From the NCBI RefSeq assembly GCF_037042905.1, contig NC_087252.1, forward strand, positions 868,001-932,000: DNA of 64,000 bases. Reading direction: 5' to 3'. This stretch comes from Lytechinus pictus (taxonomy: Eukaryota). The position numbers were made by a program, and so were the translations under genes. Below the pieces are notes generated by a model that saw only the letters and a list, made by a program, of their open reading frames with translations, had not been told where the DNA came from and searched no databases. This document shows, in pieces, positions 6,745 to 41,145 of this stretch (within the stretch, counting starts at the first letter, position 1; the number at the start of each line of letters is the position of its first letter).

Positions 6745-7467
6745 AGCCCCTTTCACAATTGACGTACGACCATTTGCGACCTTTTGGTCGTGCGTCAGGC
6801 TGCAACAGGCATCAACATGATCAATCGCTAGTCATCTCATAAGATCGCACAGATGCTTTCACAGTTGCAACAGCTGTCGTACAACAAAAACAACCAGTAA
6901 ACCCCGTTGCACGAGTAAGTCGCATATGCTCTTATTGTGCTCGTGCGATCACATGCGAGTGTTGCACGAGGGATTGCGAGTGGAACGGTCGCATACATGC
7001 GAATGAAACGGTAGTGCAATGTTGTAAGCCGTTGCGATCGGTCTTGCAACAGTCTTATGGCCCATATTATTATCGCAACCAGTCGCAAGACAGGTCTCTG
7101 TACATGTAGGTCGCTTTCACATGTGCAAGTGTTGTACGACCTCCAGTCAAGTAAATGCGACTACTTAGTTGTGCCACCTCTCGCACCAAGTCGTACAACG
7201 TTGAACAACACTCGCACGATGATCGCCCGAGCGATGGTACGACCCCGGGTACGGCCTGATGCGAGTGAATCAATCGTATTTGATCGCGTTTGGATTTTGA
7301 ACATGTTCAAAGTTCAGATGCGACCAGTCACGACCACATCGAGTTTGTGCGATCGTCTACAACGACTGCGAGTGCTCGCAAGACACCAAGGGATCGATCG
7401 TGCAACAACAAGAAAAAAATGTTGCAGGTGGTCGTAAACAGGTCGGACGTCAATTGTGAAAGGGGCT
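6745..7467. mobile_element. PIF/Harbinger-like non-autonomous element
   Basis: TIR AGCCCCTTTCACAATTGACGT ... ACGTCAATTGTGAAAGGGGCT, 3-bp TAA/TAA TSD, CpG-rich interior. Confidence 0.85.
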
Positions 7468-7984
7468 TAACATAACATAGCTTTTGTAACTGAACCGGAC
7501 TACCCTCCACTGTTCTTTTTATCGATATTTGTTAAATAAAACATGAATAAATAGTAAATAAATAAATAAATAAATAACACATGGGTATAGTGATTACCAA
7601 TATTCACAACACTCTTTTTGTTTGTCCGACATTGTTCAAACTTTCACCGATCAACTTGACTGATTTTCCTTTTTCCTCTAAAAGCAAGTTATGATTTCGG
7701 TTGGATTCCCCTTGTTTAAAACAGATGTTTTATCCGACAAAGTCTGTTTTATAGAGACGACAAAAATATAATTCATAAAATTAACTTTGCATAAACATAA
7801 ACTGAACCGAACCTACATTTTGTGGAAATGTAACCCCGCCCTCCCCTCCCCCATTCTCTCTCTCCCCATCCCCCTAGCTCTCCCTCTCTCTCTTCAGTCT
7901 TTCAGATAAACGGTCCATTTACATCAAACGAGTAGTTTCCATGTGACTGCAGTGACAACCAACAAAGTATTGTCTTGTACAATT

Positions 7985-8220
7985 CACTGTAAAAAAATAT
8001 ATTGGGTAAAATTTTAACCAGCACGAGGGTAATTGTGTCCAACCAATGCGGGAAGTACATTATCCAGTAAGGTTAAAAAAATAAGCTTAGCAGCAATTAC
8101 TTTAGAATGGGCAAAATTTTCACCACATTGGATAAATAAAAATGCCCAAAAGAAATGCCCAATGTTGGTTGGACACATAATATTACCTTCATGGAGCATT
8201 TTTACCCATTTTTTAGAGTG
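7985..8220. mobile_element. CAC-terminus MITE (degenerate)
   Basis: CACTGTAAAAAA ... TTTTTTAGAGTG with internal inverted TGTGTCCAACCAA / TTGGTTGGACACA. Confidence 0.6.
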
Positions 8221-8348
8221 TAGGCCTATAAACTTTTGATTCCAATAGGCTTATTTCACATGGTTGCATAAAATTCGATAGTATCTGCTGTCGTTATCAG
8301 CTATGTTTTGGCTTTTTTCTATCCGGAGTAATTACAGGCCCTATATTT

Positions 8349-8525
8349 CACTGTAAAAACGCAGTTTTTAAATTGTAAGCACATTTTTCAAGTCTGTCAC
8401 TCTAACAAAAATTTGTTAAAACTTTTAAACAATTTGTTAGAACTGCTTATAAAATTTAAAACAATTATTGTTAGAGTGACTGGTCTAAACAGCCTGATTA
8501 CATTTTTAAAGAGCATTTTAAAGTG
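8349..8525. mobile_element. CAC-terminus MITE (degenerate)
   Basis: CACTGTAAAAA ... TTTTAAAGTG with internal inverted GTCACTCTAACAA / TTGTTAGAGTGAC. Confidence 0.55.
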
Positions 8526-8794
8526 TATGATACTATCTAAAAGCAAAAAGCTGTTCTAGTCCCTATCACACTCTTCTCGGACTGATATAGGGACTGGAGT
8601 GTGAACTGTACATATAGAAACAGCCTATAATCTATAGGCGGACTGGGTGCAGTTCCCGGGGGGCCACTTCCATTGACAAGTGGATACCATGCGCGACCAT
8701 GGGGTCTCGAAAAGCACCCTAAACACGTATTTTCCATATTCTGAAAATGCACCCCTTAACAAGTATTGGCGTGTGAAACCCTACCCTTAACAAG

Positions 8795-10208
8795 TGTCAC
8801 TGCAGCAGTATGCAGTGAAGGTTTATGATTTTAAATGTACATGTTTTTGATTAATTCAGTTTTTCATTCTTTAAATGATATTAATTCAGTGGTTATCTAT
8901 AATGATATCTTCTAACTTGCTTTCAGTCTTCTGATTTTGATTATGTTTAGATATTGAATTTAGTCTTATTGGTGTATATCTAGTAGGCATATATAACATT
9001 TTTTTGTACATAAAGCTTTTCATATAGTATTCAATATGCTTGCATGTAGTAGATATATACTTGTACATATTTCAGTGTTATAAGATCGAGACACCCTGAT
9101 TAAAGAGAACTATGTTCTCTGTGAAGGTTCTATTCATTCCCAGAGGAGCAATTGTCTGGACCTTCAGACCTTTAGTACACAAACTTGGCCACAGTAATTG
9201 TAGAACAAAGACCCCCTTTCAGTTTGTGCAGCCCCCTTTTCTATAGTTTCAACTTGTACTGGTAGAGCTTGGCTTGGGTTTTAGCTTTTTGAGAAAGCCA
9301 AGTCATTACATTTCGGAAAGCCAGCGAGTTAACATCATATTTTAGACACCTCAAGTATTAAGTTCGATCTTTCGATACCTTCGATTCAGTTTCAACAGTT
9401 CAAAGCCTCCAATTGGTAAGAATAGTTTTATACTTCACTATTATAGATATCTCTATATTAATTTCTTTAAAGCAGTAGCAATATAGTAAACTTATATGCA
9501 TTTTTAGAACTCAGTTTAGGATATTTCTTATTGCAAAGTTGTAGCTTTATTTCGAGATCATCTTTATGATTAATAACTACATTACCTATATTTATCTTCA
9601 CTTTAAATGTTTTGATTCGCAAATTGTTAAGTGAGTTTATTAATGTCTTCATTAATTTCTGTGTTGTTTTAATTAGTTTATGAGACATATTTGTTAGTAA
9701 TACTTTCTTGAATATTTTGTTATTCATATTATAAGGAAATTCCATTTAGTTACATTAATTAGTCTGTACCTATGTAATTGATGAACTTATTATCTTAACT
9801 TATTAACTTATTTCTCCTTTTAATGCTAGTTACATAATCCAATTGTTTTGTGTAGTTTGTTTACTTTATTCATATTTGTTTCACTTATAGCTGTTAGAAT
9901 AGTAATTTAGCATACCTTTTCTTGTATATAGTCATAGCATAAAGTCGCGTTATTTGTTTTCTTTCGTAATATCATTTGTGAATTTGAATACTAAATGTTC
10001 GTTCTATTTGTTCTCTTTTTCTCGCAGTATTCTATCTACATCTACTTTACTTCATGTTACACGAGAGTTTTGCAATTAAAATCGAATCGTCATCGGTAAT
10101 TCTCTCTGTTCGGAATAAGTTTCTTTTGGAGTGCATTGTTCTTCGAACCACCTTCGATCTCGACCGAAACTCCTTACTTAGCATCTCGAGTTAAGTGAGG
10201 CAGCCACA
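8795..10208 (+). repeat. 5' LTR (1414 bp)
   Basis: TGTCACTGCAG ... GGCAGCCACA, repeated at a constant offset of 7032. Confidence 0.97.
9416..10027 (+). other. Predicted spliceosomal intron inside the LTR (612 nt; second copy at 16448-17059)
   Basis: Donor TTG|GTAAGA, very AT-rich body, branch-like TACTAAAT near 9990, polypyrimidine tract TTGTTCTCTTTTTCTCGCAG| acceptor. Confidence 0.65.
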
Positions 10209-10263
10209 ATAGAATACAAGGGACTGAAAATTCGTCGATGAAACTGGATTTCGTGATTTCGCT

Positions 10264-13200
10264 ATGGAGAATCAAACAGATGCTGTGAGTGTTGTCAGTC
10301 ATAAGTCAGCGCGGAGCAGAGCAAGTAGATCTTCTCGAGCAAGCAGTAGGAGTGATCACCTTATTCTACGTCGCCAGGAAGCTGCCATTAAAGCAAGTTC
10401 GGCATTCGATGAAGAAGAGGCTAAGCTGGAGTTGACACTTCGAAATTTAAGGACAAAAAGAAAGCTAGCTTGTCTTCAAGCCGAACAAGCTGTTCTGGAG
10501 GAGAACGCCGAGTCTGAGTTTTCTCATGGACCCGAAGACAACCACGATCTCAAAGACATTAAAGAGGAAAACGAAGCAGAAAGGATTTCACGTTTTCTTA
10601 ATCGCCAGGGAGAGGAGGAAACTCCAGTCGTTACACACCTAGAATTGGGACAGTCGTCCACAACCGTGAGTAATTCACCTGACGATATTCACAAGATCGT
10701 CTCCTCACTTGAGAAACTAGCACAGTCATCTCTCGAGCAAGGGGTGTTAAATCGACATATGTTGATTCAATCCCAGCTACCAAAAGTCGATATCCCTTTG
10801 TTTTCTGGTGACCCACTATGCTACCCTCTGTGGAAAAACTCGTTCGATGCAACTGTACATATAAAACCACTCGATGATGGAGCCAAATTGAATCTGCTTC
10901 ACAGCTGCGTCGCTGGGAAGCCGAAAGAAATTGTGCAGCACTTTGTTTTGATTGGCTCCCCGGACGCGTATGAACAAGCTCGGGAGACTCTTTCCAGACG
11001 TTACGGCGACCCGACGGTTGTAAGCTCAGCCTTTACTTCTAAGCTAAATTCGTGGGGACGCATCAACAGCCGTGACGCAACCGGACTTCAAGATTTCTCA
11101 GACTGCTTGGCAAAGGTCGTTGCTGCAAAGAAGTCAATAAAGAGCCTGGGGATTTTGGATTTTCCTCAAGAGAATTCAAAACTCGTCGAAAAGCTCCCCT
11201 CATACCTCGAAAGCAAGTGGAGGGATGAAATCGATCGCTACAAGGAAAGACATGGGAGACAAGAATACCCTCCTTTCATCGCCTTCGCTGATTTTGTGAG
11301 GAGAGCGGCGGACAAGGCCAATATCCCAGAGCTCAGTGCTTCTGTGCGGGAGCAGATAAAGCCAGTCAACCCGAAGTCAAGCGGAAAACACGCTCGTACT
11401 TTCGCAACTGAAGGAAAACCTTTCAAACCTTCAGGCAAGCCGTCCAAGGACAAGACCTGTCCATATTGTCAAGATAATCATCTCATCGAAGAATGCTCCA
11501 AGTTTAAAAATATCACCCTCGAAGAGCGGCGGGCATTCTTCTTTGAGAAGAAGTTGTGCTTTGGATGCGGGCTGCACATCAACCACAGGAGCAAGCAGTG
11601 TAAGGCCAGGCGCTCTTGTGCAGTTTGCGAAGGAAGGCATCTATCCTGCTTCCACTCGTGGCAGAAACAGCCAGTCAAGCAGGAAGAAGCAACCGCAAAT
11701 TGCACCTCGGTCTGCAGTCTCCAAGAAATTCAAGGAAAAGACCACTCGATGATTGTTCCTGTGTGGGTGAGGAGTGTCAATAACCCATCAAAATCATTCT
11801 TAGAGTACGCGATATTGGACGAACAATCCAATGTTAGCTTTATATCATGCAAACTGTACAATAAGCTAAACCTCCAAGGCCAAAAAACCAGCCTCAAGCT
11901 GACGACGCTGCATGATACTTCGATGATTGATACTTTCAAGGTGCAGGACTTGGAGTTGCAAGATCACAAAAGGCAAAACATCGTTCGCCTACCAGCTGCC
12001 TTTACCAGGGATGACATTCCTGCCACAAGGTCTCAAATCCCAAAGGCTCAGATCGCTGAAAGATGGCCTCACCTCATCCGCGTGGCAGAAGAGATGATGC
12101 CATATGACCAGACTGTTGAAGTTTCTCTTCTCATCGGAACAGACTGCCCAAGTGCGATTCGACCTCGAGAAATCGTCGCTGGAGGAGAAGCGGAACCATA
12201 TGGGCAGAAATCTCTACTTGGTTGGGGAGTTGTCGGACGAATCTGCAAGGATCCAATCGAATCAAGTTCAGCTAGCTGTCACAAAATAGCTGCTGAATTG
12301 TACCAGAACCTCGCATTCCCAACCAAGGCCAAGGAACTTCTCATCGAAGACAAGGTGATTAAAGCTCTGGAGACTGACTTCAAACATGACAACTCGAAAG
12401 AACCAATGTCCATTGAAGACCATAGATTCCTTCATCTCCTTGAGGAGGGAATAGTGAAGAGACAGGATGGGCATTATGAAATGCCACTTCCACTAAAGAC
12501 GGATAATGTAAGCCTTCCATCAAACCGACTAGTAGCTGAAAAACGATGGAGACAGCTTACAGCTCGTTTCAAGAAAAATCCTCAGTTCCTGAATGACTAT
12601 CGAGCCTTCATGGATGAAGTTATCAAGACCTATGCAGAGAGGGCACCAGTTCACAGTGTGGAAGGGATGGTCAACTATGTTCCCCACACAGGAGTGTACC
12701 ATCCTCGAAAACCGGGCAAGATTCGTGTCGTTTTCGATTGCTCGGCAAAATGTAATGGCATCTCCCTTAATGACCATCTCCTTCAAGGCCCGGACCTTAC
12801 TAATGGACTCCTCGGTGTCCTATGTCGCTTCAGGCAAGATGATGTCGCATTCATGGCCGACATCAAAAGCATGTTCCACCAATTCTACGTTACTGAGAAG
12901 CATCGAGATCTTCTTCGCTTTCTCTGGTGGGAAGACGGCAATCCAAATTCCAACGTGGTTGAATATCGGATGAAGGTGCATCTCTTCGGAGCGACAAGCT
13001 CACCAGGCTGTGCCAACTTCGGTCTCAAGAGGGCAGCAGACGACGGTGAAGAGGAATTTGGGAGTGAAGCTGCCAACTACATTCGTAAGGAGTTCTACGT
13101 AGACGATGGACTGAAGTCGGTATCGACATCGGAAGAAGCTGTTGCACTCCTGAAGTCAGCACAAGGGATCTGTGAAAAAGCAGGGCTTCGACTTCACAAA

Positions 13201-15435
13201 ATCATGTCGAACAAGAAGGAAGTTCTGCAAAAATTTGCAACAGACGACATGTCCAAGGGCCTAGCTGATGAAGTATCGTGTTCTCTTGTCATCGCTAAGT
13301 CTAGAGTGACCCCTCTCAAACACCAAACCATTCCAAGACTCGAATTAGCTGCTGCTGTTATCTCGACCAAGATGAGTGCATTTCTTCGCAAAGAACTGAC
13401 ATATCATGAGATTCGTGAATACTTCTGGACTGACAGCAAAATCGTGTTGGGGTACATCAGCAACGAGTCCAGAAGGTTTCATGTCTATGTAGCCAATCGA
13501 GTGCAACAAATACGCAACGTATCTGACCCTGCGTCTTGGTACTACGTAGACACTTCAACCAATCCAGCAGATGATGCTTCTCGAGGACTCACGGCAAAAG
13601 AGTTGTTGGAGAGCAGCACTTGGCAAGCAGGTCCAGGCTTCCTGCATGAGAAAGGACTGTTTCATCCTCCTGAACCCATTCCAATTAATGTGGAAGAAAC
13701 TGACCCAGAAGTGAAGAAATCAACAACGCTCTCATCTAGAGTTGAACTTCACAACACCTTCGACACCAGTCGGTTATTGCATCTCTCTAGCTGGAACCAA
13801 GCCAAGAGAGTAATAGCCTTGTGCGTGAGACTCAAGCAGCGTCTAAAGATGAGAGAGATCAAGCTCAAAAAATCGCCATCTTTGAAGAGACCAATACCCA
13901 GAATATCTCTGAGCGTTGCTGACCTCCAGGCAGCTGAGTGGGAAATTCTCAGCTTAATCCAGAAAAGGCACCTTGGTCGCGAGCGAGAAGTACTCGCCAA
14001 CCTGGATGTGTCAGCTGACAACAATCGACAGATTGCGAAACGGAGAAATGATGACATTAAGCCAACAAGCTCATTATATCGATTAGACCCATTTCTAGAT
14101 AGCAAAGGTCTAATTAGAGTCGGAGGTCGAATTCAGAGGGCAAATATCCCAGACTATGTGAAACACCCTGTCATCGTCCCCAGAGATGCTCATCTGACAG
14201 CACTTCTAATTCGGCATCACCATGGAGAAGTAAATCATATGGGCAGAGGATCGACTCACAATCAACTTCGTCAGGCTGGTTACTGGGTGATAGGTGGTTC
14301 GTCAGCTGTCTCATCCATCATCACCAAATGTGTGACCTGCAAGCGACTTCGTGGACCTCTGGAGAAGCAAAAGATGGCAGACCTCCCGAAAGACAGACTT
14401 GAACAGGCTCCTCCATTCTCTTACTGTGCTGTCGACTACTTTGGGCCATTCTCGATCACTGAGAAACGAAGCACAGTGAAGCGATATGTAGCACTGTTCA
14501 CCTGCATGGCATCCAGAGCTGTTCATCTGGAATCAGCCAACAGCCTCGACACCAGTTCCTTCATCAACTGTCTTCGAAGATTTGTTAATCGCCGTGGACC
14601 TGTTCGACAAATTCGCTCCGACAGAGGAACTGCTTTCGTGGGTGCTAGGAATGAGCTCCGAGACGCCTTGAAACAGATGGACCAAGACAAGATCCAGCAG
14701 TATCTTGTTGAAAATAACACTGACTGGATTCCCTTCGTAATGAATCCACCTCATGCATCACACATGGGCGGAGTATGGGAGCGCCAGATTCAGACAGTTC
14801 GTCGTGCTCTAGAACCCCTTATGATGTCTGCGGGAAAACAACTAGATGATGAGGCATTTAGAACATTTCTTTCTGAAGCAGAGTCGATCGTCAACTCAAG
14901 GCCTCTTACAACACAGAACCTGAGCTCGTCTGATGCTCCAGAACCATTGACACCTAACCATCTCCTGACTATGAAGGCCAAAGTAGTCCTCCCACCGCCA
15001 GGCAAGTTCCAGAAAGCAGACATGTATGCTAGAAAATGGTGGCGTAGAGTCCAACATCTTACCAACGAGTTCTGGACGAGGTGGAGGAAAGAATATCTAA
15101 CCGACCTGCAAACTCGGAAGAAGTGGGCTCGTCCTAGGAAAAGTCTTAAAGTCGGCGACATCGTCATCTCCAAAGAAGCAGATGATAACCGTGCTCAGTG
15201 GCCCCTTGGAAGAGTGTCGAAAGTGTATCCTAGCAACGATGGGCTTGTGCGCAAGGTCCAACTCGTCATGGCAGATTCATCGTTAGATAGCCAGGGCAAG
15301 CGTAAAAAACAACCCACCATGCTGGAAAGACCTGTACACAAATTGGTGCTTCTCTTGTCTCCAGAAGAGACCTCGGAAACTAGTGACACAGAAGACCAAG
15401 GGATTCCCCATCAAGGAGCCAACACAACACAATGA
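10264..15435 (+). CDS. BEL/Pao Gag-Pol polyprotein (1723 aa), apparently missing the RT thumb/tether and RNase H N-terminus
   Basis: Gag FSGDPLCYPLW; three Cys/His knuckles (CPYC..H..C, CFGC..H..C, CAVC..H..H); protease ILDEQS; RT RVVFDCSA, ADIKSMF, LFGATSSP, YVDD; RNase H C-terminal part AKSRVTP, IPRLEL, WTDS, NPADDASRG; integrase H-H-C-C, VDYFGP, SDRGT, GGVWER. Confidence 0.95.
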   Translation: MENQTDAVSVVSHKSARSRASRSSRASSRSDHLILRRQEAAIKASSAFDEEEAKLELTLRNLRTKRKLACLQAEQAVLEENAESEFSHGPEDNHDLKDIKEENEAERISRFLNRQGEEETPVVTHLELGQSSTTVSNSPDDIHKIVSSLEKLAQSSLEQGVLNRHMLIQSQLPKVDIPLFSGDPLCYPLWKNSFDATVHIKPLDDGAKLNLLHSCVAGKPKEIVQHFVLIGSPDAYEQARETLSRRYGDPTVVSSAFTSKLNSWGRINSRDATGLQDFSDCLAKVVAAKKSIKSLGILDFPQENSKLVEKLPSYLESKWRDEIDRYKERHGRQEYPPFIAFADFVRRAADKANIPELSASVREQIKPVNPKSSGKHARTFATEGKPFKPSGKPSKDKTCPYCQDNHLIEECSKFKNITLEERRAFFFEKKLCFGCGLHINHRSKQCKARRSCAVCEGRHLSCFHSWQKQPVKQEEATANCTSVCSLQEIQGKDHSMIVPVWVRSVNNPSKSFLEYAILDEQSNVSFISCKLYNKLNLQGQKTSLKLTTLHDTSMIDTFKVQDLELQDHKRQNIVRLPAAFTRDDIPATRSQIPKAQIAERWPHLIRVAEEMMPYDQTVEVSLLIGTDCPSAIRPREIVAGGEAEPYGQKSLLGWGVVGRICKDPIESSSASCHKIAAELYQNLAFPTKAKELLIEDKVIKALETDFKHDNSKEPMSIEDHRFLHLLEEGIVKRQDGHYEMPLPLKTDNVSLPSNRLVAEKRWRQLTARFKKNPQFLNDYRAFMDEVIKTYAERAPVHSVEGMVNYVPHTGVYHPRKPGKIRVVFDCSAKCNGISLNDHLLQGPDLTNGLLGVLCRFRQDDVAFMADIKSMFHQFYVTEKHRDLLRFLWWEDGNPNSNVVEYRMKVHLFGATSSPGCANFGLKRAADDGEEEFGSEAANYIRKEFYVDDGLKSVSTSEEAVALLKSAQGICEKAGLRLHKIMSNKKEVLQKFATDDMSKGLADEVSCSLVIAKSRVTPLKHQTIPRLELAAAVISTKMSAFLRKELTYHEIREYFWTDSKIVLGYISNESRRFHVYVANRVQQIRNVSDPASWYYVDTSTNPADDASRGLTAKELLESSTWQAGPGFLHEKGLFHPPEPIPINVEETDPEVKKSTTLSSRVELHNTFDTSRLLHLSSWNQAKRVIALCVRLKQRLKMREIKLKKSPSLKRPIPRISLSVADLQAAEWEILSLIQKRHLGREREVLANLDVSADNNRQIAKRRNDDIKPTSSLYRLDPFLDSKGLIRVGGRIQRANIPDYVKHPVIVPRDAHLTALLIRHHHGEVNHMGRGSTHNQLRQAGYWVIGGSSAVSSIITKCVTCKRLRGPLEKQKMADLPKDRLEQAPPFSYCAVDYFGPFSITEKRSTVKRYVALFTCMASRAVHLESANSLDTSSFINCLRRFVNRRGPVRQIRSDRGTAFVGARNELRDALKQMDQDKIQQYLVENNTDWIPFVMNPPHASHMGGVWERQIQTVRRALEPLMMSAGKQLDDEAFRTFLSEAESIVNSRPLTTQNLSSSDAPEPLTPNHLLTMKAKVVLPPPGKFQKADMYARKWWRRVQHLTNEFWTRWRKEYLTDLQTRKKWARPRKSLKVGDIVISKEADDNRAQWPLGRVSKVYPSNDGLVRKVQLVMADSSLDSQGKRKKQPTMLERPVHKLVLLLSPEETSETSDTEDQGIPHQGANTTQ

Positions 15436-15826
15436 ACATTTAATTTAATTTAATTCTTTGTCTCTTTGTTTTCCACTTTTTTGTTCTTGTCTTTCCTCTT
15501 TGCCATTTCTTTTTCCAATCTTCTCTTGATAGTTCGCTCGAGTAGACTTGTCAAAATTCAAGTGTTTTGATTCTTTGTTTCTGTATTTCTACTTTTCTTT
15601 TTCTCAACTACTTTCACCTTTTATCTCCTTTCTATTTCTCTCCTAATTTACTTTCATATTTTCGCTCAAGTCAGTTGATTTTAACTATTGTATCGTTGCC
15701 TTTTGTTTTAAAAGCGCCAGCTGTTTTATTCTTTTGATATTCGTGAATAATTTGCTTCGAAATTTATGAAAAATTGTTTTCGTTTAGCTTTCGATTGGTA
15801 ACTGCCTAAAGCAGTTAAAGGAGCCA

Positions 15827-17240
15827 TGTCACTGCAGCAGTATGCAGTGAAGGTTTATGATTTTAAATGTACATGTTTTTGATTAATTCAGTTTTTCATT
15901 CTTTAAATGATATTAATTCAGTGGTTATCTATAATGATATCTTCTAACTTGCTTTCAGTCTTCTGATTTTGATTATGTTTAGATATTGAATTTAGTCTTA
16001 TTGGTGTATATCTAGTAGGCATATATAACATTTTTTTGTACATAAAGCTTTTCATATAGTATTCAATATGCTTGCATGTAGTAGATATATACTTGTACAT
16101 ATTTCAGTGTTATAAGATCGAGACACCCTGATTAAAGAGAACTATGTTCTCTGTGAAGGTTCTATTCATTCCCAGAGGAGCAATTGTCTGGACCTTCAGA
16201 CCTTTAGTACACAAACTTGGCCACAGTAATTGTAGAACAAAGACCCCCTTTCAGTTTGTGCAGCCCCCTTTTCTATAGTTTCAACTTGTACTGGTAGAGC
16301 TTGGCTTGGGTTTTAGCTTTTTGAGAAAGCCAAGTCATTACATTTCGGAAAGCCAGCGAGTTAACATCATATTTTAGACACCTCAAGTATTAAGTTCGAT
16401 CTTTCGATACCTTCGATTCAGTTTCAACAGTTCAAAGCCTCCAATTGGTAAGAATAGTTTTATACTTCACTATTATAGATATCTCTATATTAATTTCTTT
16501 AAAGCAGTAGCAATATAGTAAACTTATATGCATTTTTAGAACTCAGTTTAGGATATTTCTTATTGCAAAGTTGTAGCTTTATTTCGAGATCATCTTTATG
16601 ATTAATAACTACATTACCTATATTTATCTTCACTTTAAATGTTTTGATTCGCAAATTGTTAAGTGAGTTTATTAATGTCTTCATTAATTTCTGTGTTGTT
16701 TTAATTAGTTTATGAGACATATTTGTTAGTAATACTTTCTTGAATATTTTGTTATTCATATTATAAGGAAATTCCATTTAGTTACATTAATTAGTCTGTA
16801 CCTATGTAATTGATGAACTTATTATCTTAACTTATTAACTTATTTCTCCTTTTAATGCTAGTTACATAATCCAATTGTTTTGTGTAGTTTGTTTACTTTA
16901 TTCATATTTGTTTCACTTATAGCTGTTAGAATAGTAATTTAGCATACCTTTTCTTGTATATAGTCATAGCATAAAGTCGCGTTATTTGTTTTCTTTCGTA
17001 ATATCATTTGTGAATTTGAATACTAAATGTTCGTTCTATTTGTTCTCTTTTTCTCGCAGTATTCTATCTACATCTACTTTACTTCATGTTACACGAGAGT
17101 TTTGCAATTAAAATCGAATCGTCATCGGTAATTCTCTCTGTTCGGAATAAGTTTCTTTTGGAGTGCATTGTTCTTCGAACCACCTTCGATCTCGACCGAA
17201 ACTCCTTACTTAGCATCTCGAGTTAAGTGAGGCAGCCACA
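15827..17240 (+). repeat. 3' LTR (1414 bp)
   Basis: Same length as the 5' LTR; no differences in the segments I compared; identical spurious ORF translations in both copies. Confidence 0.97.
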
Positions 17241-18029
17241 ACAAGTATTGGAAACAAAACGATACTCCTGGCAAGTATTCCCTGAAATGAACCCCTAAAC
17301 AAGTACAGCGATGTTTATGTCACGGGTCCGTCCGTCGTCGTGGTTTTACCTTTATACACCATTTGGTTTAGTACGGCCCCACAATAAAGATGTATACTAA
17401 TAACGCTTTTACGTTATTAGTATATATCTCTACGGGCCCCACCTTCCACACCTCGCGCAAATCATACTCTAAACACGTAGTGTTGGGGCAAAGAGGATAT
17501 CTTTATAAAACATTTTAATTTTGTTTATCATCCCCGCAAATTTGACCCTAAACACGTAGCTTTCCTAGCGAAATAGATACCCTTTTTTCATTATTTTTGT
17601 GTTTTTGACACCCTTATCACGTTACGTACGTAACGTACGTGCCCTATCTTGAAAAAGACATCCTTTTTACGTGTTTTTTGGTCGCGCATGGTATCCACTC
17701 GTCAATGTAAGTGCCCCCCCCCCCCCCCCGGGGTGCAGTTATTGTCTTTGTTGTTATTATGCTGAACGTAAGCGATACGTCTGATCTGGCAAAGACTACG
17801 CATTGCAACAATGTGTAGTCTTTGCCAGATCAGACGTATCTCTTGCGTTCAGCATAACAGCAAAGACAATAAATGCAGCCTCCGCCTGGATATAGGCTAC
17901 CTTAGAGAGTGCAAATGTGACCGAGCTACTATAAATTACTAATCACCAAACATGCAGGCAATGATTTCAAATATCATCCCGAGGTTTTTTTACCTGACTG
18001 CTAAGAAAGTACGAATGCCTGTGAGCAAG

Positions 18030-18172
18030 CAACCAGGGGACCAACGGCTTAAGGTCCTCTCCGAGGGACCTGGTAATGAGGATAAATGCCTTACCAAAGG
18101 GCACTTGGAAATCGAACCCGGGTCATCGGAATCCGAAACCCCCGCTCTATACCGACTGAGCTATCGCGCCTC
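18030..18172 (-). mobile_element. tRNA-derived SINE (5' part)
   Basis: Minus strand GAGGCGCGATAGCTCAGTCGG (A box) ... GGTTCGATTTCC (B box) followed by GCCCTTTGGTAAGGCATTTATCCTC core. Confidence 0.7.
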
Positions 18173-19560
18173 ATGGAGTAACATATACCACAATGGTTAG
18201 TTTCGGTCATATTCGTTCATTATTTTGGTTTACGTAGCAGACGATGCTAGCCTGCGAGTATATAGTATACTTACGCAGACCCTATTGCAAATCAAAATCA
18301 ATTCCGGACTCAATATTTGCTTCCTAGCTCAAACTGTAGCTATATCATAAATATCAGTAGGCAAAGTTTTATAATACAAGAACAATACTTTCAACATTAA
18401 ATGCGTTAATTAAGTATGTTTGGACTGTATTAATTGTTTCAAATGGAAAGGGTCTAGAAACAAAAACTATCATACGTTAGTCACGTGACGTTGTACACAG
18501 AAATATGCCATGTTCTGCCTGCTCGATCTCAAAGTTTGGGAGAAAAATAAGATGTAACCATTATACCAGTCATAAAGTACTATACATCAAACTGTAGGTA
18601 ATCTATTTAACATTGAGATGACAATCAATCTTGACATTTTTTACCCTTAGGGATCCCTTTAGGGATATTTCAGTGGGAAAACAAAGGTGCCAACGTCTCG
18701 AAAATATAGGTGGTTTTAGACCGTTTACCATAGCAAGAGTTGTGAACATGGGAACATGGACACTTTCAAATGAACAGCGAGACGTGAATAGTGAATTAAT
18801 TGTAATAATATTCACATCAAATTAATTGAATTGGACAAAATTTTCACACTATTATCAATCTGGTGTGAGATTATTAATAATTATAAAGATATACCCGGAT
18901 TTTTGCAATATTACGCTCGTGAAAACGACTGTTCCCTGTGTTGAAGCTGTGTGTGGGGACTTTTGGACACTCATGCACGCGACTAACCATTATGCATCAT
19001 TTTTGTCAGCATTAACCGATATTATTTTTGCTTCCTCTATGCCAGGATCACACAGTCAAGGGCGGAAATCTCTCCCCATAGGTAGGGAGGGGGGGGGGGC
19101 CAGGGGCTGGAAAATTTGACCAAAAAAAAGGTTATCAACCAAAAAGTAAGGTCATGCCAGGGGCCGCAGAACTGTTTTAAAAGTGGGGGGGGGGGGCTGA
19201 CCATGCAAAAAATCACAATCATATGGTAATTTTTACGTTTTTGTACATGGTTTTGAATGTTTTATTTCGATTTTAAATGATTGATTTTGTTCCATCATAA
19301 AAGACAAAAAATACTAGGGGGACATTTCATATTGTGTCCTACTATTTTGGGTAGGGGGACGCGACCCCCTGTCCTCCCTGGGATTTCCGCCCATGTGCAC
19401 AGTCCCGATGCAGACAGAGTAGAGGACCGAAACACAAGTTATTTTACAAAACAGAAACTTCTTCTCTCGTAATCTAAAAAAAAAACAGTCAGTATACCAC
19501 GTCGGATGACATAAATTTTCTGTCCTTTAATTAATTCCAACAAAAAAATATGGCCTAGAT

Positions 19561-25953: not shown

Positions 25954-27731
25954 CTGGTGTTACCCTGTTTTTAAGGTTTTTCATCAACCAGACAGGAGCG
26001 CTCCGTTTTTTCATTTATTTATGAAATATAGATCAGTCCGTGTATGTATTTTTGTGAGAGTAATATAGTGTTACAACACTTGTAATTTCTCAATGCTTTT
26101 ATAAGAATGTATGTCTTGATAAAAAAAAAGTGAGGGAGACACACCCGACATCGAGCAGAAAAATTCATGCCGCGCTTTGAGGACTCCTTACATGTATATT
26201 CAATTTCAAATGTCTGCAGGCCTGATAAGGCTCAGATTATTCCAGAGAGCGTCTTGTAACCCATCTAACATCTTGAGATGTGTGATATGCATATAATATG
26301 ATGTCCTCCTAAATCTATTTTACAAAAAAAGATTGCATCTTTTGGAATGCAAGGAATAGTTGTCTTCAAGCCTACATACCTTCTTTATGGTTCATTGATT
26401 GATTGATTTTGTCATTTATCAACGTCAACATTACATAACATTGTCAATTGGTGTTTATCATCCAGAGAACATGAGAGGATCATTACTTGCTGCAAGAGCT
26501 TGAAAATGGTGTCCAAAAATTTAAAGAAAAAGAAACAAACTACCGTAAATACATGTATTTACACATACATGTAGTATAATAATATGCAGCGCTTAGAAAC
26601 ATTCTAAGTGCTATATATTATGTTGCATATTAATTAATATCATTATTATTACTATACAAAGCTGAAGTATATTCTCACCTTGACGCAAAGAAATACCAGT
26701 GATTAAAAGCTTGCGAGAAGAAGTTGATTTCATTACAAGTTCAAGACTATACAATGAATCTTCAAGTTCAACACACGTGTGTATATTCATCACAAGTGCA
26801 ATAAAATACCAGCTCTGAGACATACGTCTCCCTCTCTTTCGTAGCTATACTACAGTGTATCTTCTGATTAAAATTCACTTTCCTTCCACTATTTATAACC
26901 TAATGTTACTCAAAAATATATACTGTAAAGGAACATTTAGAGAATTCTCTACCCTATGTTTCTCCTTGTCCGAAATTACATAAACTACTCTAGCCAATCA
27001 AGGCTCAGGACTGACTTACATGTATATCATAAGTTATATTATTCCTTATCTTGGGATGGATATAAAGGGATACATAGAGAAACTACTTGGAACCAATCAT
27101 CTCACAGGACCACCTTACATAAGCGTCGGGAGGTGCATTTAAAGAAATACATACAAAAACTTCTTTGGACCAATCACATCATGGGAGTTCCTTATAAAGT
27201 TGTTCCTTGTCGAGAGACACTCTTTTTGACCAATCACTGTTTAGTACTTTCTTACATAAACTTTGTTTTTCCAGATGGCGTAATGAATGTTAATCCCTCC
27301 CTTGACATTTGTATCAAGAACAAAGACTCCTGTAGAAAAGATTTTAGCCTATTTTGAGCCATGGCCTTAAGACTTGAAGCCATATGAACGTAAATCCTGG
27401 CATGTGAAATGGGTTGCTGTATATAATATTATGACTTTCACATGCCTACTTTAATCTCAGGTACACACCTATAATTTAGAAAGAATATAATTTAACTGTA
27501 GGCCTAAGGACTACTTCATCACAATTGTTATTGTTACTGTTAGTATTATTATTATTATCATCATTATTATTATTATTATCATTATTATTACTATTAATAT
27601 TATTGTTATTGTTATTATTATTATTATTACTATTATAATTGTTATTATTATAATCGTCATAATCATCGTCATTATTATGATTATTAAAAAAAACATAATT
27701 ATAATTATTTCTTTCTTTCTTTGATTTTTAG

Positions 27732-27916
27732 ATCATTAGACTGTCTACCTATGCTACAATTCACAACAAAATGTAAGCTGACAATATCAGAATGTAAGGA
27801 GATAGGCTGGGGAGAACTCACACAAGCAACTGTAGAGTTTTGCGCCACACTCAGGGATTTAAGTCTTGATGTCACTGAATTTTGTATCCTGAATGGGCTA
27901 GTGGTGTGTTTTCCAG
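27732..27916 (+). CDS. Nuclear receptor coding exon 4 (LBD to helix 8)
   Basis: Acceptor TTTTTAG|; reads SLDCLPML...LRDLSLDVTEFCILNGLVVCFP; donor G|GTAGGT (phase 1). Confidence 0.88.
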
Positions 27917-28262: not shown

Positions 28263-31200
28263 ATGCTTTTCACACTGCACATATTTTCCCGGGGTTAAGC
28301 TTTATAGACCACTTCGTTTTCACACTACGTTTTAGCAAAGTGGGCTAGCACGGTAAATACATGTAGTAGAGCATGATCGGTTAAGGGTTAGCATTGGGGT
28401 GAATTTTTTTTTTTTTTTTTTCTATCAAAATTGCTTTTAAAATAATCTTTGATATCTCAGGTTTCAAAGAACTTAGTTTCATGAAGATTGATGATTCCGA
28501 AAGTGTACTGGAATAGTCCATTTTATTCATGGGGGTGCTGTTACCTCTCATCACGGACGGACATTTTTACTTAAATTAGTTTTATGGTTTTTAAAGTTAC
28601 TCTTATTTGGTTTGGATGTTCTTGCACTCTGAACAGTAATCTATTATCAAAAATAAATTAGTAGAAAAAAAATATTGGGAAGTAATTTTTTTTGGTAGGT
28701 CTTAACATTTCCATTTTGAAATTTCCGTCCGTGATAAAAAAAAAGATGAAAAGTTTTTTTATTCTTTATCGGAATAGAAATAAAAAATAAAAAGGTGTAG
28801 AGGTATCTCACTAAACACTGTACATCATTTTATTTGAACATAGCTGAAATCCATACATTTTATCCATATCATAAACTCAATAAAAAATGATCACGGACGG
28901 ACATTAATTTCATCACGGACGGACAAAAGTAAATTTACTCAAATTCAATTCACTCTAGTTTTATTGTTTTCAAAGTTACTCTAATTTGGTTTGGATTTTC
29001 TTGTACTCTGAACATTAATCTATCATCAAACGTAAATTAGAAGAAAAAAATATGGGAAGTAAATTTTTCTGGTAGATGTTAACATTTCCATTTTGAAATT
29101 TCCGTCTGTGATGAAATTAATGTCCGTCCGTGATCATTTTTTATTGAGTTCATGAATGGATAATATGTATGGATTCAGTTTTTTATTCTTTATTAGAATA
29201 GAAACAAAAATAAAAGTGTATAGAAGTATGTCACTAGACACTGTTCATCATTTTATTTGAACATAGCTAAAATCCATACATTAAATCAATCAAAAATGAT
29301 CACGGACGGACATTAATTTCATCATTAACGGACAAGTGAGCAATATAAGCTAATACTGTGGAAAGATCCATACAGGAAAATGAGAAATTTTGCTGAGCAG
29401 ATTACAAATTTAATTTTAGTTTCAATTTGCAGTGAAAAATGGCATTGAGAATTATTCAGGACTCAAATGGATGGAAACCTAAAACTCTTTACAATTTTTT
29501 GTGATATCTTTGTTTGGCTGTTATTGGGGCCAAATTGTTGTAAGGAAAAATTGTTAAACACAATTGGAAAGCAGAATTGCAGATACTTTGGAAAGCTACA
29601 TGTATGCCAAAAAAGCAGGAAATAAAGTATGGCAAGAACAAGTCCAAAACTGTAGATTTCATCAATACAAGGTTGCAGAAAGTGATGTAAAAGAAAGTAG
29701 AATGCATAATCTGATAAGCAGAAAAATCATTTTTTTTCCTTGTATAAACCTATGGATTCACAATGCTTAATTAACAGAACATGACACCACAGTCTTTAGG
29801 CTTGTGAAAAGTACAAGAATACCTTTTTTCAGAGTCCATTTTGGAGCTAATTTTATTAAAGCAAATTGCTTATCTGGTAAATTGAAAATGCATACTATTT
29901 ATAAAGCTTGTACTACATTGTTTAGGAAGTTTAATAAGCTTTTGATTGATATATGATTTATCAATTTCAATTTTGGATTCTGTCAGGGCCTAAATAAATG
30001 AGGGCTGTTGATGTTATGGGATGTTTCCCCTTTCATATGGGCAAAAGATGAATTAGAAGAAAGCCTCTGACAAGTGTTGTGGTCATACTTGATCCACCAA
30101 ACAAGCATAAGGATCAGCAACCTGTGAATCTTGGACCTAAAAAACATCTTTGCTCTTGGAAAATTAATTCCTAAAAATGTATTAACATGTATCATCATGA
30201 TATATATCATAAGATATTTGTATCAAGATTCAACATGATCATTGATCAACTAGATGTTGATTTGGTACCTACCGGTATTATATCATTCGAAAAGAAGACA
30301 ATGTGCATTAGGACATTCTTTAAATTTGATTTTGACAAGAAATGTGTTTAAAGCAATCATTTCTGCAGATTATACTGTGTGTCTAGCATAGAAATCAAGT
30401 TGCTACAACTTATCAAGTTGTAGCAACTTGATTGTGCAACTAATACTGTTTAATCATATTTAAAAATGTACAAATCATCAATACAATATCAGTTGTTCCC
30501 CAAAAAAGTAATAAGAACTTCTTACAAGGTACTTTCAATGTATTTTAATTGTGTCCGTCCGTGATGTCCGTCCGAGATGTCCGTCCGTGATGGAAAATGT
30601 TTGCAATTCTCTCAGAAGTTTGATATTGGTTAAGAATTCAATATGCTGAACATAGAAGCTATTAACATACATGTACCTGAGTATTAGTTGCATTAAAAAA
30701 TATTGGTCAATGTTAAGCTATTTAGATAGAAACAATAAAAATGTACAAAAATTCTGAAAACCACATTTCTATCATGTCCGTCCGTGATATGGCACATTTA
30801 GTGGATACCTATGTTTGTAGGTAACCATGGCAACAATCTTTTTTCATCATTCAGTAGACTTTGTCCTACCCTTCACTATAAAACACAAAGGAACCTTGTT
30901 CATCTTATTCCTAATTTGTTACAAGCCTTCAAAATTTCCTAAATCTATCAAATGTCCGTCCGTGATGAACCGATCACGCTCAGTACCGTACTATCTGGCC
31001 CTGCAAAAAAGCAGTGTTAGCCGGCTTATTGCGGTGCTAAGAGATGCAGTGTGAAAGACAACCAGGCTGAGCATTAGCCAAACATAGAAGTAAAAATTGC
31101 ACGTTAATCACGCTCTATATGGCAAAATCTTCAATATTCATGAGCTGTGCGATAGTCCGGGGTTAAGAAAGACAGTGTGAAACCAAAAAAAAAATAGTAT

Positions 31201-31265
31201 GGGGTTTAAGGATAGTCCGGGGTTCAGGATAGTATGGGGTTAAGGAAATGCAGTGTGAAAAGCAT
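28263..31265. mobile_element. MITE with ATGCTTTTCACACTGCA TIRs, hosting the Sola2-like insertion
   Basis: ATGCTTTTCACACTGCA at 28263 and TGCAGTGTGAAAAGCAT ending at 31265; GGGGTTAAG subterminal motifs. Confidence 0.6.
28369..30981. mobile_element. Sola2-like non-autonomous DNA transposon (2.6 kb)
   Basis: TIR GAGCATGATCGGTT / AACCGATCACGCTC, 4-bp TSD AGTA, about 12 subterminal ATCACGGACGGACA motifs in both orientations. Confidence 0.7.
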
Positions 31266-33419
31266 ACTAGTGTGCCAAAATTATTTTTCATATTTTTATT
31301 CCATTTGAAAAGTAGATCATGAACGTCTTGTTGTTGGTTCTGGGGTGGAGGGTCTCTTATTTTTCTTTAGTATTTTCCTTTCCCTCTCCTTTTTTACTAT
31401 CTATTTTTCCCCTTTCTCTCTTATTTTCTCTCTATCAATTCCTTTCTCACTCTCTCTTTATTTTCTGTAGCGTCATGGTTCCCCCTCTCTTATTTTCTAT
31501 CTATTTCTTCTTTTCTCTCTATTATTTTCTTTCTTCACTCCTGTATGGTTTCTCCATTTGCAATCCTCGTTTAGTCCTTTCACCAATGTACATGAATTTT
31601 CCATCTCACCCACCCCGCCCCCCTCTCTCTCTCTGTTTCTTACACAATTTCTTGTATTATTATGGCTTCCCTAATCATCTGTTCTATATCAAAATCCCTG
31701 CATCTTGTGCTATCGGCCTTCTGCTTTTTCTTTGTATCGCTTTATATGGCTTTTTACCCATGCATACATCTGCCCCCCTGTATTTGTCTTGATTGCATAG
31801 CAGACCCATGCATACATCTGCCCCCCTGTATTTGTCTTGATTGCATAGCAGTGTGAAAGACAACCAGGCTGAGCATTAGCCAAACATAGAAGTAAAAATT
31901 GCACGTTAATCACGCTCTATATGGCAAAATCTTCAATATTCATGAGCTGTGCGATAGTCCAGGGTTAAGGTGTTAATCTCGGCTAAGCAAATAGTATGGG
32001 GTTAAGAAAGACAGTGTGAAACCAAAAAAAAAATAGTATGGGGTTTAACCCTCAATCTCCCGGGGTATTTTGATTCTTGTCAATCCCGGGGGGGGGGGCC
32101 ATTATGGCCCCCCCCCCTTAAGATCTCGGCCGCCGATTGCGCGAGCGACGCAAAAATTTGTACACTGGTAGTGTGCGATATAATCTACAAGGCTGTATGG
32201 TAAAATTTTCCAAAATAATGAGATTTTATTTTATATGAATTAATTATGCTAATTTATGCATAAATCATACTTTTTGCTATAATTCACTAAATAAAGCTCC
32301 TAGAATGCTAATTTTTGGTAAAAAAATTCTTTGTAGCAATCTTAACAATCACAATTAAAAAAACTTCGGTTTGGAAATCAATTTCTTATGTATTTTATTG
32401 TTTTATGAATTTCTTATGTATTTCTTTGTTTTTTTACTTTTTGTTTTTTATTGTTTTTTCAATGGAAATCATTCCAGACTTAGTTCTGATCATAAACAAG
32501 GCAAAATTAATTCAGTTTATTCAGTAAAAGTAGAAATAATGATACATTTATGAATTTTGGCTAAATACACAATTTGCATTGGATTTGTACATGAAATCAC
32601 GTTTATGAGCAATTTTGGGTCTGACATGCACTTACATAATGTTGCGTAATGTCGTAACCGTGTACCCGGGCGTCACAAATTTGGTCTCAAAATTTGCGCG
32701 AGACTTTAAAGTAAAAAGTCAGTGAGCGGCGAGGTCAAAAAAATTTGCGCAGCAGATATATCGCGAAAATTGTCAAGGGGGGGGGCCATTATGGCCCCCC
32801 CCGGGAGAATTAGGGTTAAGGATAGTCCGGGGTTCAGGATAGTATTGGGTTAAGGAAATGCAGTGTGAAAAGCATACTAGTGTGCCAAAATTATTTTTCA
32901 TATTTTTATTCCATTTGAAAAGTAGATCATGAACGTCTTGTTGTTGGTTCTGGGGTGGAGGGTCTCTTATTTTTCTTTAGTATTTTCCTTTCCCTCTCCT
33001 TTTTTTTTCTATCTATTTTTCCCCTTTCTCTCTTATTTTCTCTCTATCAATTCCTTTCTCACTCTCTCTTTATTTTCTGTAGCGTCATGGTTCCCCCTCT
33101 CTTATTTTCTATCTATTTCTTCTTTTCTCTCTATTAATTTCTTTCTTCACTCCTGTATGGTTTCTCCATTTGCAATCCTCGTTTAGTCCTTTCACCAATG
33201 TACATGAATTTTCCATCTCACCCACCCCGCCCCCCTCTCTCTCTCTCTGTTTCTTACACAATTTCTTGTATTATTATGGCTTCCCTAATCGTCTGTTCTA
33301 TTCCAAAATCCCTCCATCTTGTGCTATCGGCCTTCTGCTTTTTCTTTGTATCGCTTTATATGGCTTTTTACCCATGCATACATCTGCCCCCCTGTATTTG
33401 TCTTGATTGCATAGCAGAC
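31046..33419 (+). repeat. Local tandem duplication of about 0.8 kb (copy A 31046-31805; copy B 31848-33419 including a MITE insertion)
   Basis: Near-identical sequence and near-identical spurious ORF N-termini (31319 vs 32929); GCAG microhomology at the junction; 48-bp local repeat at 31756-31851. Confidence 0.9.
32049..32815. mobile_element. piggyBac-like MITE
   Basis: TTAA|CCCTCAATCTCCCGGGG ... CCCGGGAGAATTAGGG|TTAA; the paralogous empty site GGGGTTTAAGGATAG is at 31201. Confidence 0.9.
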
Positions 33420-40164: not shown

Positions 40165-40500
40165 TCTTGATATCATTATCATTGTTAATATTTTATTCTT
40201 CTTGTTATCGTAACAATAATAACAAAACAACGCAGTTTAACTTTAAATTTTTGTTATTATTATTATCATTATTGCAAATTTTTTATCATTATTGTTATGA
40301 TAACATAATAGCAAGGCAGTTTACATTGTTATTATTATTATTGTTATTAATATTACTATTATTATGATTGTTATTATTCTCATTATTATTGTTGGAATTA
40401 TCATTATTATTATCATTCTTATTATTATTATTTTTATTATTATTTTTTTTATTAATATTATTACTATTATTATTATTATTATCGTTACTATTATTATATT
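40165..40500. repeat. Degenerate (ATT)n microsatellite (similar tracts at 27525-27685 and 27965-28040)
   Basis: Directly visible. Confidence 0.9.
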
Positions 40501-41145
40501 CTTACATTGTTATGAATAATGATGATAAAAATGAATTTGTATAGTGCTTCTATGAAACAATTTATTAATTTCCATGACAGAACAGATACCTCTTAAATTA
40601 AGATCTGAATATATTATCATTATCATTTTTATTTCATATTCTTGTTATAATGATCAAGCGACGTATATATTCTCTTTGTTTCTATGTGTATTCATACAAG
40701 CAAATCAATGTAGTATTTCACATGTTTAAACACTGAAATTATGTGATCTCAAATGAGTTGGAGTGGGTTCTCCAATATAATTCATTTACAACTTACGATT
40801 ACTCAAATATTTTGCATTGGAGTGGTACCAGTTGGATGTTTCATGAAGCTATTTGTAAAATACGACTGAATCTACGCAAGACTGGTGATCCTTTCATGGA
40901 CTGAATGACTTATTGCTATGTAGCTGACTTGGCACATAAAAACATGTTCCAGTTGTGCGTAAGTCATTTGTAACTTTACAAACAGCAACGGATCAATCTG
41001 ACCATTACCCTGCCTGAATAAGAGCTGTGAAGAAATTTGATGCAAAATAAAATTGTTATCAATCTTGAATTCCTATCCCTAATGTCTAAACTACACAATT
41101 CGACTTTGATTCAAATCTCACATCTGCTTGTGATACGAGGCCCAG

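Follow-up and report, generated by a model that had tools for sequence, protein, structure and literature searches.

A BEL/Pao retrotransposon of Lytechinus pictus with a primer-binding site complementary to a splice junction in its own long terminal repeat: candidate splicing-dependent self-priming

Introduction

What starts minus-strand DNA synthesis in a retrotransposon that has no binding site for a transfer RNA (tRNA)? The question is raised by a stretch of 64,000 nucleotides from Lytechinus pictus (NC_087252.1, positions 868,001 to 932,000; contig 8 of the 812-Mb assembly, G000), referred to here as the window, which carries a BEL/Pao retrotransposon bounded by long terminal repeats (LTRs). 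A preliminary description of this DNA had placed the end of the 5' LTR at 10208, had noted that an 11-nt site and no TGG follows it, and had proposed that this site pairs with the splice junction of an intron lying inside the LTR, so that the element would prime its own reverse transcription independently of tRNA. In the present work this proposal was examined in the window and among related elements of the same genome. The reading that we favor, with a probability of roughly 0.8, is self-priming similar to that of Tf1 but with a primer assembled by splicing, the spliced junction serving as the minus-strand primer. The element would thus most likely use no host tRNA and start copying with its own spliced RNA.

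Results

The sequence following the 5' LTR is ATAGAATACAA GGGAC, without TGG, and the proposed end of this LTR is borne out by the sequence and by LTR identity, the direct repeats at 8795-10208 and 15827-17240 being 1414 nt long each and 100% identical in a self-BLAST of the region. The GT-AG intron predicted inside the LTR (9416-10027) was also found, with the donor GTAAGA at one end and a pyrimidine tract and CAG at the other. Joining its flanks, TTG and TATTCTAT, gives the exact reverse complement of the 11-nt site, whereas the unspliced sequence offers a contiguous match of 9 nt (10027-10035), and both counts of the preliminary description are correct. Taken from the window alone, this match is modest. 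A complement of at least 9 nt anchored at the first post-LTR base was obtained in 66 of 2000 shuffles of the A+T-rich LTR; of the 79 GT dinucleotides upstream, 2 have TTG before them, as does 1 of the 2 GTRAG donors; and the two bases that splicing adds to the nine contiguous ones are not significant by themselves. These window figures are what speaks for a match by chance, arising in an A+T-rich LTR that happens to contain a GT..AG pair, and a test on relatives was therefore needed.

A gag search of the genome gave 101 matches, and 50 loci were inspected. Three other full copies of the element (contigs 25, 4 and 5; 91-93% identical over the query) are uninformative on covariation because their donor, acceptor and post-LTR site are the same. 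At 42 of the 50 loci, the complement of the post-LTR word was found directly behind a pyrimidine tract and CAG, 86-280 nt upstream. One representative per family was retained, leaving out same-family duplicates and the L029/L066 family, and the resulting 16 families fall into three classes (Table 1).

Table 1. Sequence features of the three classes of BEL/Pao families at the LTR end and at the splice sites
Class	Gag identity to window element	LTR end, then site	Exon-1 ends	Acceptor, then word
A	41-52%	GGCAGYCACA, then ATA.....	TTG (three families), TTCG (two), ATTTG (one)	CAG, then TATTCTAT; AATGTTAT; TATTTTAT; ATTGTTAT; TATATTAT
B	32-37%	...ACA, then GTGAAAAC or GTAAAAAC	CAAAGAG, AGAG (two families), AAGGAG, GAAG	CAG, then TTTTCAC or TTTTTAC
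C	24-29%		TGTT (two families), TGAC, CGTT, TGAT	CAG, then ATTGAAC; GTCGAAC; ACTGAAC, pairing with GTTCAAT; GTTCGAC; GTTCAGT

Examination of the 16 representatives revealed that the post-LTR site of every family pairs perfectly over 11-14 nt with the family's own exon-1 end and exon-2 start (11, 11, 11, 12, 12, 13, 14, 11, 13, 11, 12, 11, 11, 11, 11 and 11 nt). Without splicing the complement is shorter, at 9 nt for families of classes A and B and at 7 nt for those of class C, where the last G of the intron is unpaired and the junction gives 4+7 = 11 nt. The word is split in the DNA of all 16 families by introns of 203-1115 nt. Thirteen distinct junction 11-mers were counted among the 16 families, and when sites were paired with the differing words of other families, all 232 combinations stayed below 11 nt, with 10 nt as the longest match. 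On the exon-1 side, each end stands before a GTAAGT-like donor and 3-7 nt of it match the family's own site (16/16), with at least 8 compensated differences. Positions 1-11 are Watson-Crick pairs in all 176 cells, 10 of the 11 positions showing 2-4 pair types; beyond these, pairing is limited to 6, 7 and 7 of the 16 families at positions 12, 13 and 14. Such perfect pairs without wobble would fit a site that is re-copied from its primer in each cycle. In no family is the base after the word able to pair with the base before the site, and this sharp end of the pairing at the 3' end of the word (16/16) would fit cleavage at the end of the duplex.

The covariation between the post-LTR site and the LTR splice junction foreseen in the preliminary description is therefore present in all 16 families and on both exon sides. 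Chance complementarity is refuted by the family table and by the position-by-position pairing, since all families reach 11-14 nt against none of the 232 cross-family pairs and since copies without the intron exist (see below), and we give it practically no weight.

Another explanation retains self-priming of the Tf1 type and dispenses with splicing. Transcription would start at the CAG (initiator-like CAGT), the word would be the 5' end of the unspliced mRNA, the intron would be spliced only in read-through 3' untranslated regions, and the exon-1 match would be incidental. Initiator motifs of the TCAGT type are known, which an acceptor CAG followed by T or A resembles, and the nine contiguous complementary bases of classes A and B also speak for it. 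Class C, with only seven contiguous bases and the last G of the intron unpaired, does not fit it, and it leaves unexplained both the compensated exon-1 matches and the pyrimidine tract and matching GT donor found at 16/16 sites. A start at the CAG is accordingly regarded as very unlikely.

The LTR ends were checked by genome-wide match tables in one family per class (L020, L050 and L059). In the L020 family (class A) and the L050 family (class B) the LTR ends directly before the site, with a spacer of 0 nt, and in the L059 family (class C) it ends with ...CGCCACA, followed by the six bases TCTACA and then by the site; in the other class C families 4-5 bases lie between LTR end and site by inspection. 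The LTR of the L031/L065 family is 1615 nt long.

Several further traits of these families were recorded. A motif directly 5' of the pairing bases occurs in all three classes, reading AAAGCCTCCAA, AGGCCCAA, GAGCCCAA or GGAGGCAA in the window element and at the same place in L020-L065, with the counterparts GCCCAA in class C and GGCAA in class B; junction position 13 is an A in 16/16 families and position 12 in 13/16. A start site, a cut signal and a splicing signal are candidates for its role. Its pairing with TTGGAG- or TTGGG-like U5 words was considered and rejected, no consistent covariation being visible by eye. In three of the five class C families (L059:3700-3730, L062 and L063), ATTAAA stands 6 nt before the acceptor AG and exon 2 has no canonical AATAAA; should this ATTAAA be the poly(A) signal, it would be an intronic one, lost from the 5' copy on splicing, and the RNA would be cleaved immediately behind the primer word. 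The L032-family copy L033 (contig 3, ~40209750) has the acceptor CAA instead of CAG, and its intron is therefore probably not spliceable.

Outside this genome, a gag search of viral contigs and a gag-alignment search of metagenome contigs found no relatives. The pattern GAGGCAGYCACAATA had 119 loci in the metagenomes, and the 8-nt word stood upstream at 3 of them, about the chance level; the one of the three that was inspected (L170) looks like bacterial coding sequence with a signal-peptide-like start and was rejected.

Copies of the LTR from which the intron is missing were found in four families, and the exact junction could be read in three of them (window family, L020 and L059). The window family includes a solo LTR, L010 (contig 17), which has a separate 5-bp duplication (ACAAA) and from which 9416-10027 is precisely missing, ...CCTCCAATTG being joined directly to TATTCTATC.... 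The exact exon-exon junction is also seen in L069 (L020 family) and L071 (L059 family), and in L070 (L050 family), an old and diverged copy about 79% identical over exon 2, it could be placed within about 3 nt. On contig 9, an element shows the junction twice, in the 5' LTR (L067), which runs into the site and gag, and in a 3' LTR fragment (L068), which unrelated DNA cuts off 45 nt upstream of the junction. Intronless LTRs are the minority throughout: the window family has 1 among 10 close LTR copies, the L020 family 1 among about 30, the L059 family 3 to 5 among about 38 and the L050 family 1 among 16. The exact loss of a GT..AG unit with consensus donor and pyrimidine-tract acceptor is the signature of splicing followed by reverse transcription, and because such copies occur in four families we take these introns to be really removed and the spliced RNA to be reverse transcribed. 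Together with the covariation, these copies strongly support the original claim that the site pairs with the LTR splice junction and that priming is independent of tRNA. In the contig 9 element (~18873700-18882850), the last base of the primer word is changed from C to T in both LTRs and the site is unchanged, leaving a terminal G:U pair; its LTR pieces are 94% identical, so that the element is old.

Could a host tRNA, a tRNA half or another small RNA nevertheless prime at ATAGAATACAAGGG? The profile of the international committee for virus taxonomy (ICTV) has the whole family tRNA-primed (PMC8742986), and an olive-fly BEL/Pao element has an 18-nt tRNA-Tyr site (PMC4580426). The 14-mer occurs 15 times in the genome, in 4 element copies, 6 times in an unrelated repeat and at 5 single sites. 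ARAGORN predicted a tRNA at none of the 11 non-element loci and no tRNA gene in the window, and Rfam gave no match within 7000-19500. None of the 11 host loci with the 14 nt is a tRNA, an outcome on which the preliminary description had made its proposal depend; this screen covered the 14-mer loci and the window. The site lacks TGG and differs by family, yet it is complementary to the LTR of its own family, and a single shared host RNA is ruled out because there are 13 different words. Priming by a host tRNA or small RNA is therefore considered highly improbable.

A helix between junction and site might also be a structural or regulatory RNA element, acting in packaging, dimerisation, translation control or 5'-3' circularisation, with another host RNA as the primer. 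In retroviruses, helices near primer sites do serve packaging, and DNA synthesis from the junction is so far a proposal. In classes A and B the helix begins right behind the LTR, where the 3' end of a primer defines U5, and all 176 pairs are Watson-Crick without wobble, which argues against a purely structural role. So does the want of any other primer site, as there is no TGG and no alternative conserved site, 13 words cannot serve one host RNA, and no tRNA lies at the 11 other genomic copies of the 14-mer. We consider a structural helix unlikely, if less so than the other alternatives. Beginning at the U5 boundary, sharp at both ends, perfect without wobble and present in full only after splicing, the helix is, to judge from the sequence, what looks like a primer:site pair.

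Folding of the leaders depended on the length given to exon 1. With 6 nt of exon 1, the helix was part of the minimum-energy structure of 16/16 spliced leaders and complete in 12 of them, and in the unspliced leaders it appeared in 8/16 with 7-9 bp only. The CAGTT words at 9387 and 9396 of the window copy are mere start candidates, and in 2 families strong TATA-like boxes stand 29 and 35 nt upstream of the donor, while 7 of the 16 have them 205 to 256 nt upstream. An exon 1 of only 5-6 nt was rejected as unsupported.

Three raw RNA runs with the same species label (X19-X21) contain almost no reads on the element; a few sense-strand reads were found in X21, some of them in the intron. In run X1, a contig of 967 nt (depth 154) passes from the end of the internal region into LTR positions 8795-9415 and then into 12 nt of exon 2, and so shows the junction in a 3'-LTR context. 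X1 is only guessed to be RNA, and the contig represents either spliced RNA or another intronless DNA copy; missing depth over the intron in this run does not count as evidence.

The general structure of the element in the window (Table 2) is that of BEL/Pao retrotransposons, to which it is assigned because of the gag-pol domain set DUF1759, Peptidase_A17, Integrase_H2C2 and DUF5641. Pfam places DUF1759 at residues 180-322, a weak RVT_1 at 857-979, Peptidase_A17, described in Pfam as 'Pao retrotransposon peptidase', at 1002-1058, Integrase_H2C2 at 1310-1361 and DUF5641 at 1592-1697. The domains are thus of Pao type with the integrase late in the polyprotein, the LTRs have TG..CA ends and the duplication is within 4-6 bp; no gypsy or chromodomain match that would point to the Tf1/sushi group was found in gag-pol. 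From its sequence, this is a very young BEL/Pao insertion.

Table 2. Features of the window (positions in the 64,000-nt stretch)
Feature	Position	Strand	Basis
Target-site duplication ACAAG, 5 bp	8790-8794 and 17241-17245	+	sequence
5' LTR, TGTCAC...GCCACA (TG..CA ends)	8795..10208	+	self-BLAST, sequence
Conserved exon-1 motif AAAGCCTCCAA, directly 5' of the pairing bases	9402..9412	+	
Exon-1 end TTG (3 nt), forming the 5' part of the predicted primer; pairs with CAA 10217-10219	9413..9415	+	
LTR-internal intron, 612 nt: GTAAGA donor, pyrimidine tract, CAG acceptor	9416..10027	+	sequence; precisely absent in solo LTR L010
Exon-2 start TATTCTAT (8 nt), forming the 3' part of the predicted primer; pairs with 10209-10216	10028..10035	+	
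Putative R with ATTAAA (10075-10080), AATAAG (10114-10119) and downstream motif TTTCTTTTGGAGTG (10120-10133)	10036..10133	+	inference
U5 hairpin, ending 5 nt before the LTR end	10170..10203	+	predicted fold
Primer-binding site ATAGAATACAA, immediately adjoining the LTR and complementary to the spliced junction	10209..10219	+	sequence
Single gag-pol open reading frame, 1723 aa	10264..15435	+	Pfam domains
Candidate polypurine tract AAAGGAG, just 5' of the 3' LTR	15817..15823	+	sequence; function inferred
3' LTR with second donor (16448), intron, acceptor (17059) and primer word (17060-17067)	15827..17240	+	
Two arrays with 9-15-nt periodicity, 12.7 kb apart	27477-27740 and 40251-40553		
Duplication of ~1.6 kb	31196-33419		
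Three-copy repeat, ~240-nt spacing	43227-43924		

The ATTAAA reported near 10075 is present, and together with AATAAG and the conserved downstream motif, which is common to three class A families (the window element, L032 and L034), it likely marks the poly(A) region. In 5 of the 6 class A families a hairpin that stops 4-5 nt short of the LTR end is predicted, with differing stem sequences; classes B and C do not have it.

The polyprotein of the window copy is shorter than that of its sister copies by about 142 aa between residues 979 and 1002 (window 13198-13270), its open frame having 1735 aa against 1877-1879 aa. Its Peptidase_A17 match begins only at profile position 105, which indicates that an in-frame piece of the reverse transcriptase/ribonuclease H region is missing. 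As the LTRs are nevertheless 100% identical and the duplication is intact, the sequence suggests that this copy was mobilised recently with proteins from other copies. The insertion target (window 8700-8794 and 17246 onward) is a high-copy sequence heavily covered on both strands in the three RNA runs, at a depth of 300-460 compared with 0-5 on the element. Read joints in it 'go back' 43-69 nt, and within the window itself it has no Rfam match and no tandem repeat.

Discussion

The self-priming that we propose for this element would proceed as follows. Removal of the LTR intron would join the last 3 nt of exon 1 to the first 8 nt of exon 2, and the 11-nt word so formed would anneal to the 11 nt directly after the 5' LTR. 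The duplex would be cut at its end, after 10035, as in Tf1, and the 3'-OH opposite 10209 would prime minus-strand DNA, the primer RNA ending in ...UUG/UAUUCUAU and being joined to DNA that starts with the complement of 10208. Strong-stop DNA would copy 10208 back to 10036, that is, U5 and the exon-2 part of R, at which point the template is severed by the cut; it would then transfer to the 3' end of an RNA by way of this part of R, which would extend from 10036 to the poly(A) site. For all that lies upstream of the cut, the intron included, the 3' LTR region of the template would serve as the source. An unspliced 3' copy would pass the intron on to the progeny; with a spliced one, both progeny LTRs would be intronless. 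We infer from these genomic data that the helix primes rather than only folds the RNA, that it is cleaved and that transcription starts upstream of the donor. Primer and template may be the same molecule (in cis), or a spliced RNA may prime a co-packaged unspliced RNA (in trans).

This scheme has consequences that can be compared with the copies found. The splice state of the 5' leader would not be inherited, so that most progeny should keep the intron, and loss of the intron should affect both LTRs, as in the contig 9 element, because the upstream part is copied from the 3' LTR region. A route in which the spliced 5' leader is copied to its end would yield intronless products only and is excluded because most LTRs keep the intron, which fits a template that is cut. 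The retention of the intron in most LTR copies also agrees with the earlier suggestion that the intron is re-copied from an unspliced 3' LTR; the junction of the X1 contig in a 3'-LTR context would mean, if X1 is RNA, that the 3' copy can be spliced as well.

Several observations weigh against self-priming by the spliced junction. If X1 is RNA, the 3' copy can be spliced, which predicts more intronless progeny than are seen. The scan for TATA-like boxes in the 16 families showed no positional enrichment relative to the donor, and transcripts that began downstream of the donor would have no junction in their 5' leader. When 60 nt of exon 1 were included, only 5 of the 16 leaders had the helix in their minimum-energy fold; a long exon 1 would also leave a 5' tail on the primer, before which plus-strand strong-stop synthesis must stop short, and we know of no stop signal for this. 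In class C, the position of the site 4-6 nt beyond the CA of the LTR would require the integrase to trim more than usual. The donor of the L029/L066 family is ambiguous, and 8 of the 50 loci do not have the design: the LTR-end motif is missing from L027 and L044, the site is present in L042 and L043 with no word within the short upstream DNA covered, and L046, L056, L058 and L060 show no convincing design. Finally, all the comparative evidence comes from one genome.

A broader proposal is that in a large and old BEL/Pao branch reverse transcription must first be licensed by pre-mRNA splicing, the primer being absent from both the DNA and the primary transcript and assembled by the spliceosome, and the intron surviving through the unspliced 3' copy. 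We lean towards this proposal, with distinctly less assurance than towards self-priming by the junction itself. If splicing does license reverse transcription, the textbook tRNA-priming of Belpaoviridae would be wrong for many members, and the history of nuclear RNA processing would directly gate retrotransposition.

Earlier reports of self-priming concern the Tf1/sushi branch of Ty3/gypsy, and a whole set of BEL/Pao lineages now appears to be self-priming as well. What is new, and supported by the present data, is a self-priming variant in a superfamily described as tRNA-primed, in which the spliceosome would build the primer. In this way a retroelement could distinguish its RNA species and tie replication to nuclear processing by a new route; the variant would explain the unusually long, intron-bearing LTRs, would predict intronless LTR copies as a by-product of replication, and would mean that LTR-finding pipelines demanding a tRNA site mis-score these elements. 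The covariation table provides falsifiable predictions for the mapping of RNA and complementary DNA.

In agreement with the preliminary description, which knew of no account of this kind for BEL/Pao elements, a search of the literature on BEL/Pao, Belpaoviridae and Semotivirus found no self-priming or LTR intron described, an older account in subscription journals (e.g. on Cer, Suzu or Pao) being possible. The words PBS (primer-binding site), tRNA and intron do not occur in the text of the main BEL/Pao survey (PMC3118150), and the Sinbad paper does not mention a PBS or tRNA (PMC554778). The article on Achilles, the olive-fly BEL/Pao element, gives it an 18-nt tRNA-Tyr site (PMC4580426). For Belpaoviridae, the ICTV profile gives a length of 0.2-1.2 kb for the LTRs and host-tRNA priming from an 18-nt site complementary to tRNA-Arg or tRNA-Gly (PMC8742986). 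Like canonical BEL/Pao elements (Belpaoviridae, Semotivirus), the element described here has DUF1759, Peptidase_A17, an integrase and DUF5641, TG..CA LTRs and a 5-bp duplication; unlike them, it and its relatives have no tRNA site, LTRs of 1.4-1.6 kb, outside the range of the profile, and an intron in each LTR. In place of the 18-nt tRNA site there is a site that lacks TGG, varies by family and matches the element's own LTR junction. Such a tRNA site describes the family as it is known and is not a phylogenetic character, and membership of BEL/Pao by protein homology stands.

Retroviruses offer a parallel in the use of splicing. Their major splice donor separates genomic from subgenomic RNA, and splicing removes the packaging region and has no part in making a primer; to our knowledge, no retrovirus has an intron lying wholly inside the LTR. 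As in retroviruses, the splicing status of the BEL/Pao transcript would assign each RNA species its replication role.

The closest likeness is with Tf1, Tf2 and Tj1 of the Tf1/sushi group (Ty3/gypsy chromoviruses), which also have no tRNA site and in which the site adjoins the 5' LTR and is complementary to the element's own LTR RNA. The self-primer of Tf1 is 11 nt long and is cut between nucleotides 11 and 12, and the 11-nt duplex and the cut at its end needed for a 3'-OH would be shared by the BEL/Pao element. A U5-IR-like stem is reportedly present in Tf1, of which the hairpin next to the site in class A is reminiscent. In these elements the primer is a 5' segment of the mRNA that is annealed to the site and cut off by the reverse transcriptase of the element (PMC4600332, PMC5341516). 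Three of the six class A sites (L039, L065 and L020) begin with ATAAC, as does the Tf1 primer site (PMC11042837), which may be convergence or coincidence. Unlike Tf1, the element belongs to the BEL/Pao superfamily and its primer word is split in the DNA by an intron and becomes whole only after splicing. The Tf1 word is the 5' end of the mRNA, a position that the BEL/Pao word may or may not share. In Tf2, the choice of transcription start decides whether the RNA carries the self-primer (PMC5341516). In both systems an RNA isoform would thus decide whether the self-primer is present and hence whether reverse transcription can start; the switch is promoter choice in Tf2, and in the BEL/Pao element it would be splicing.

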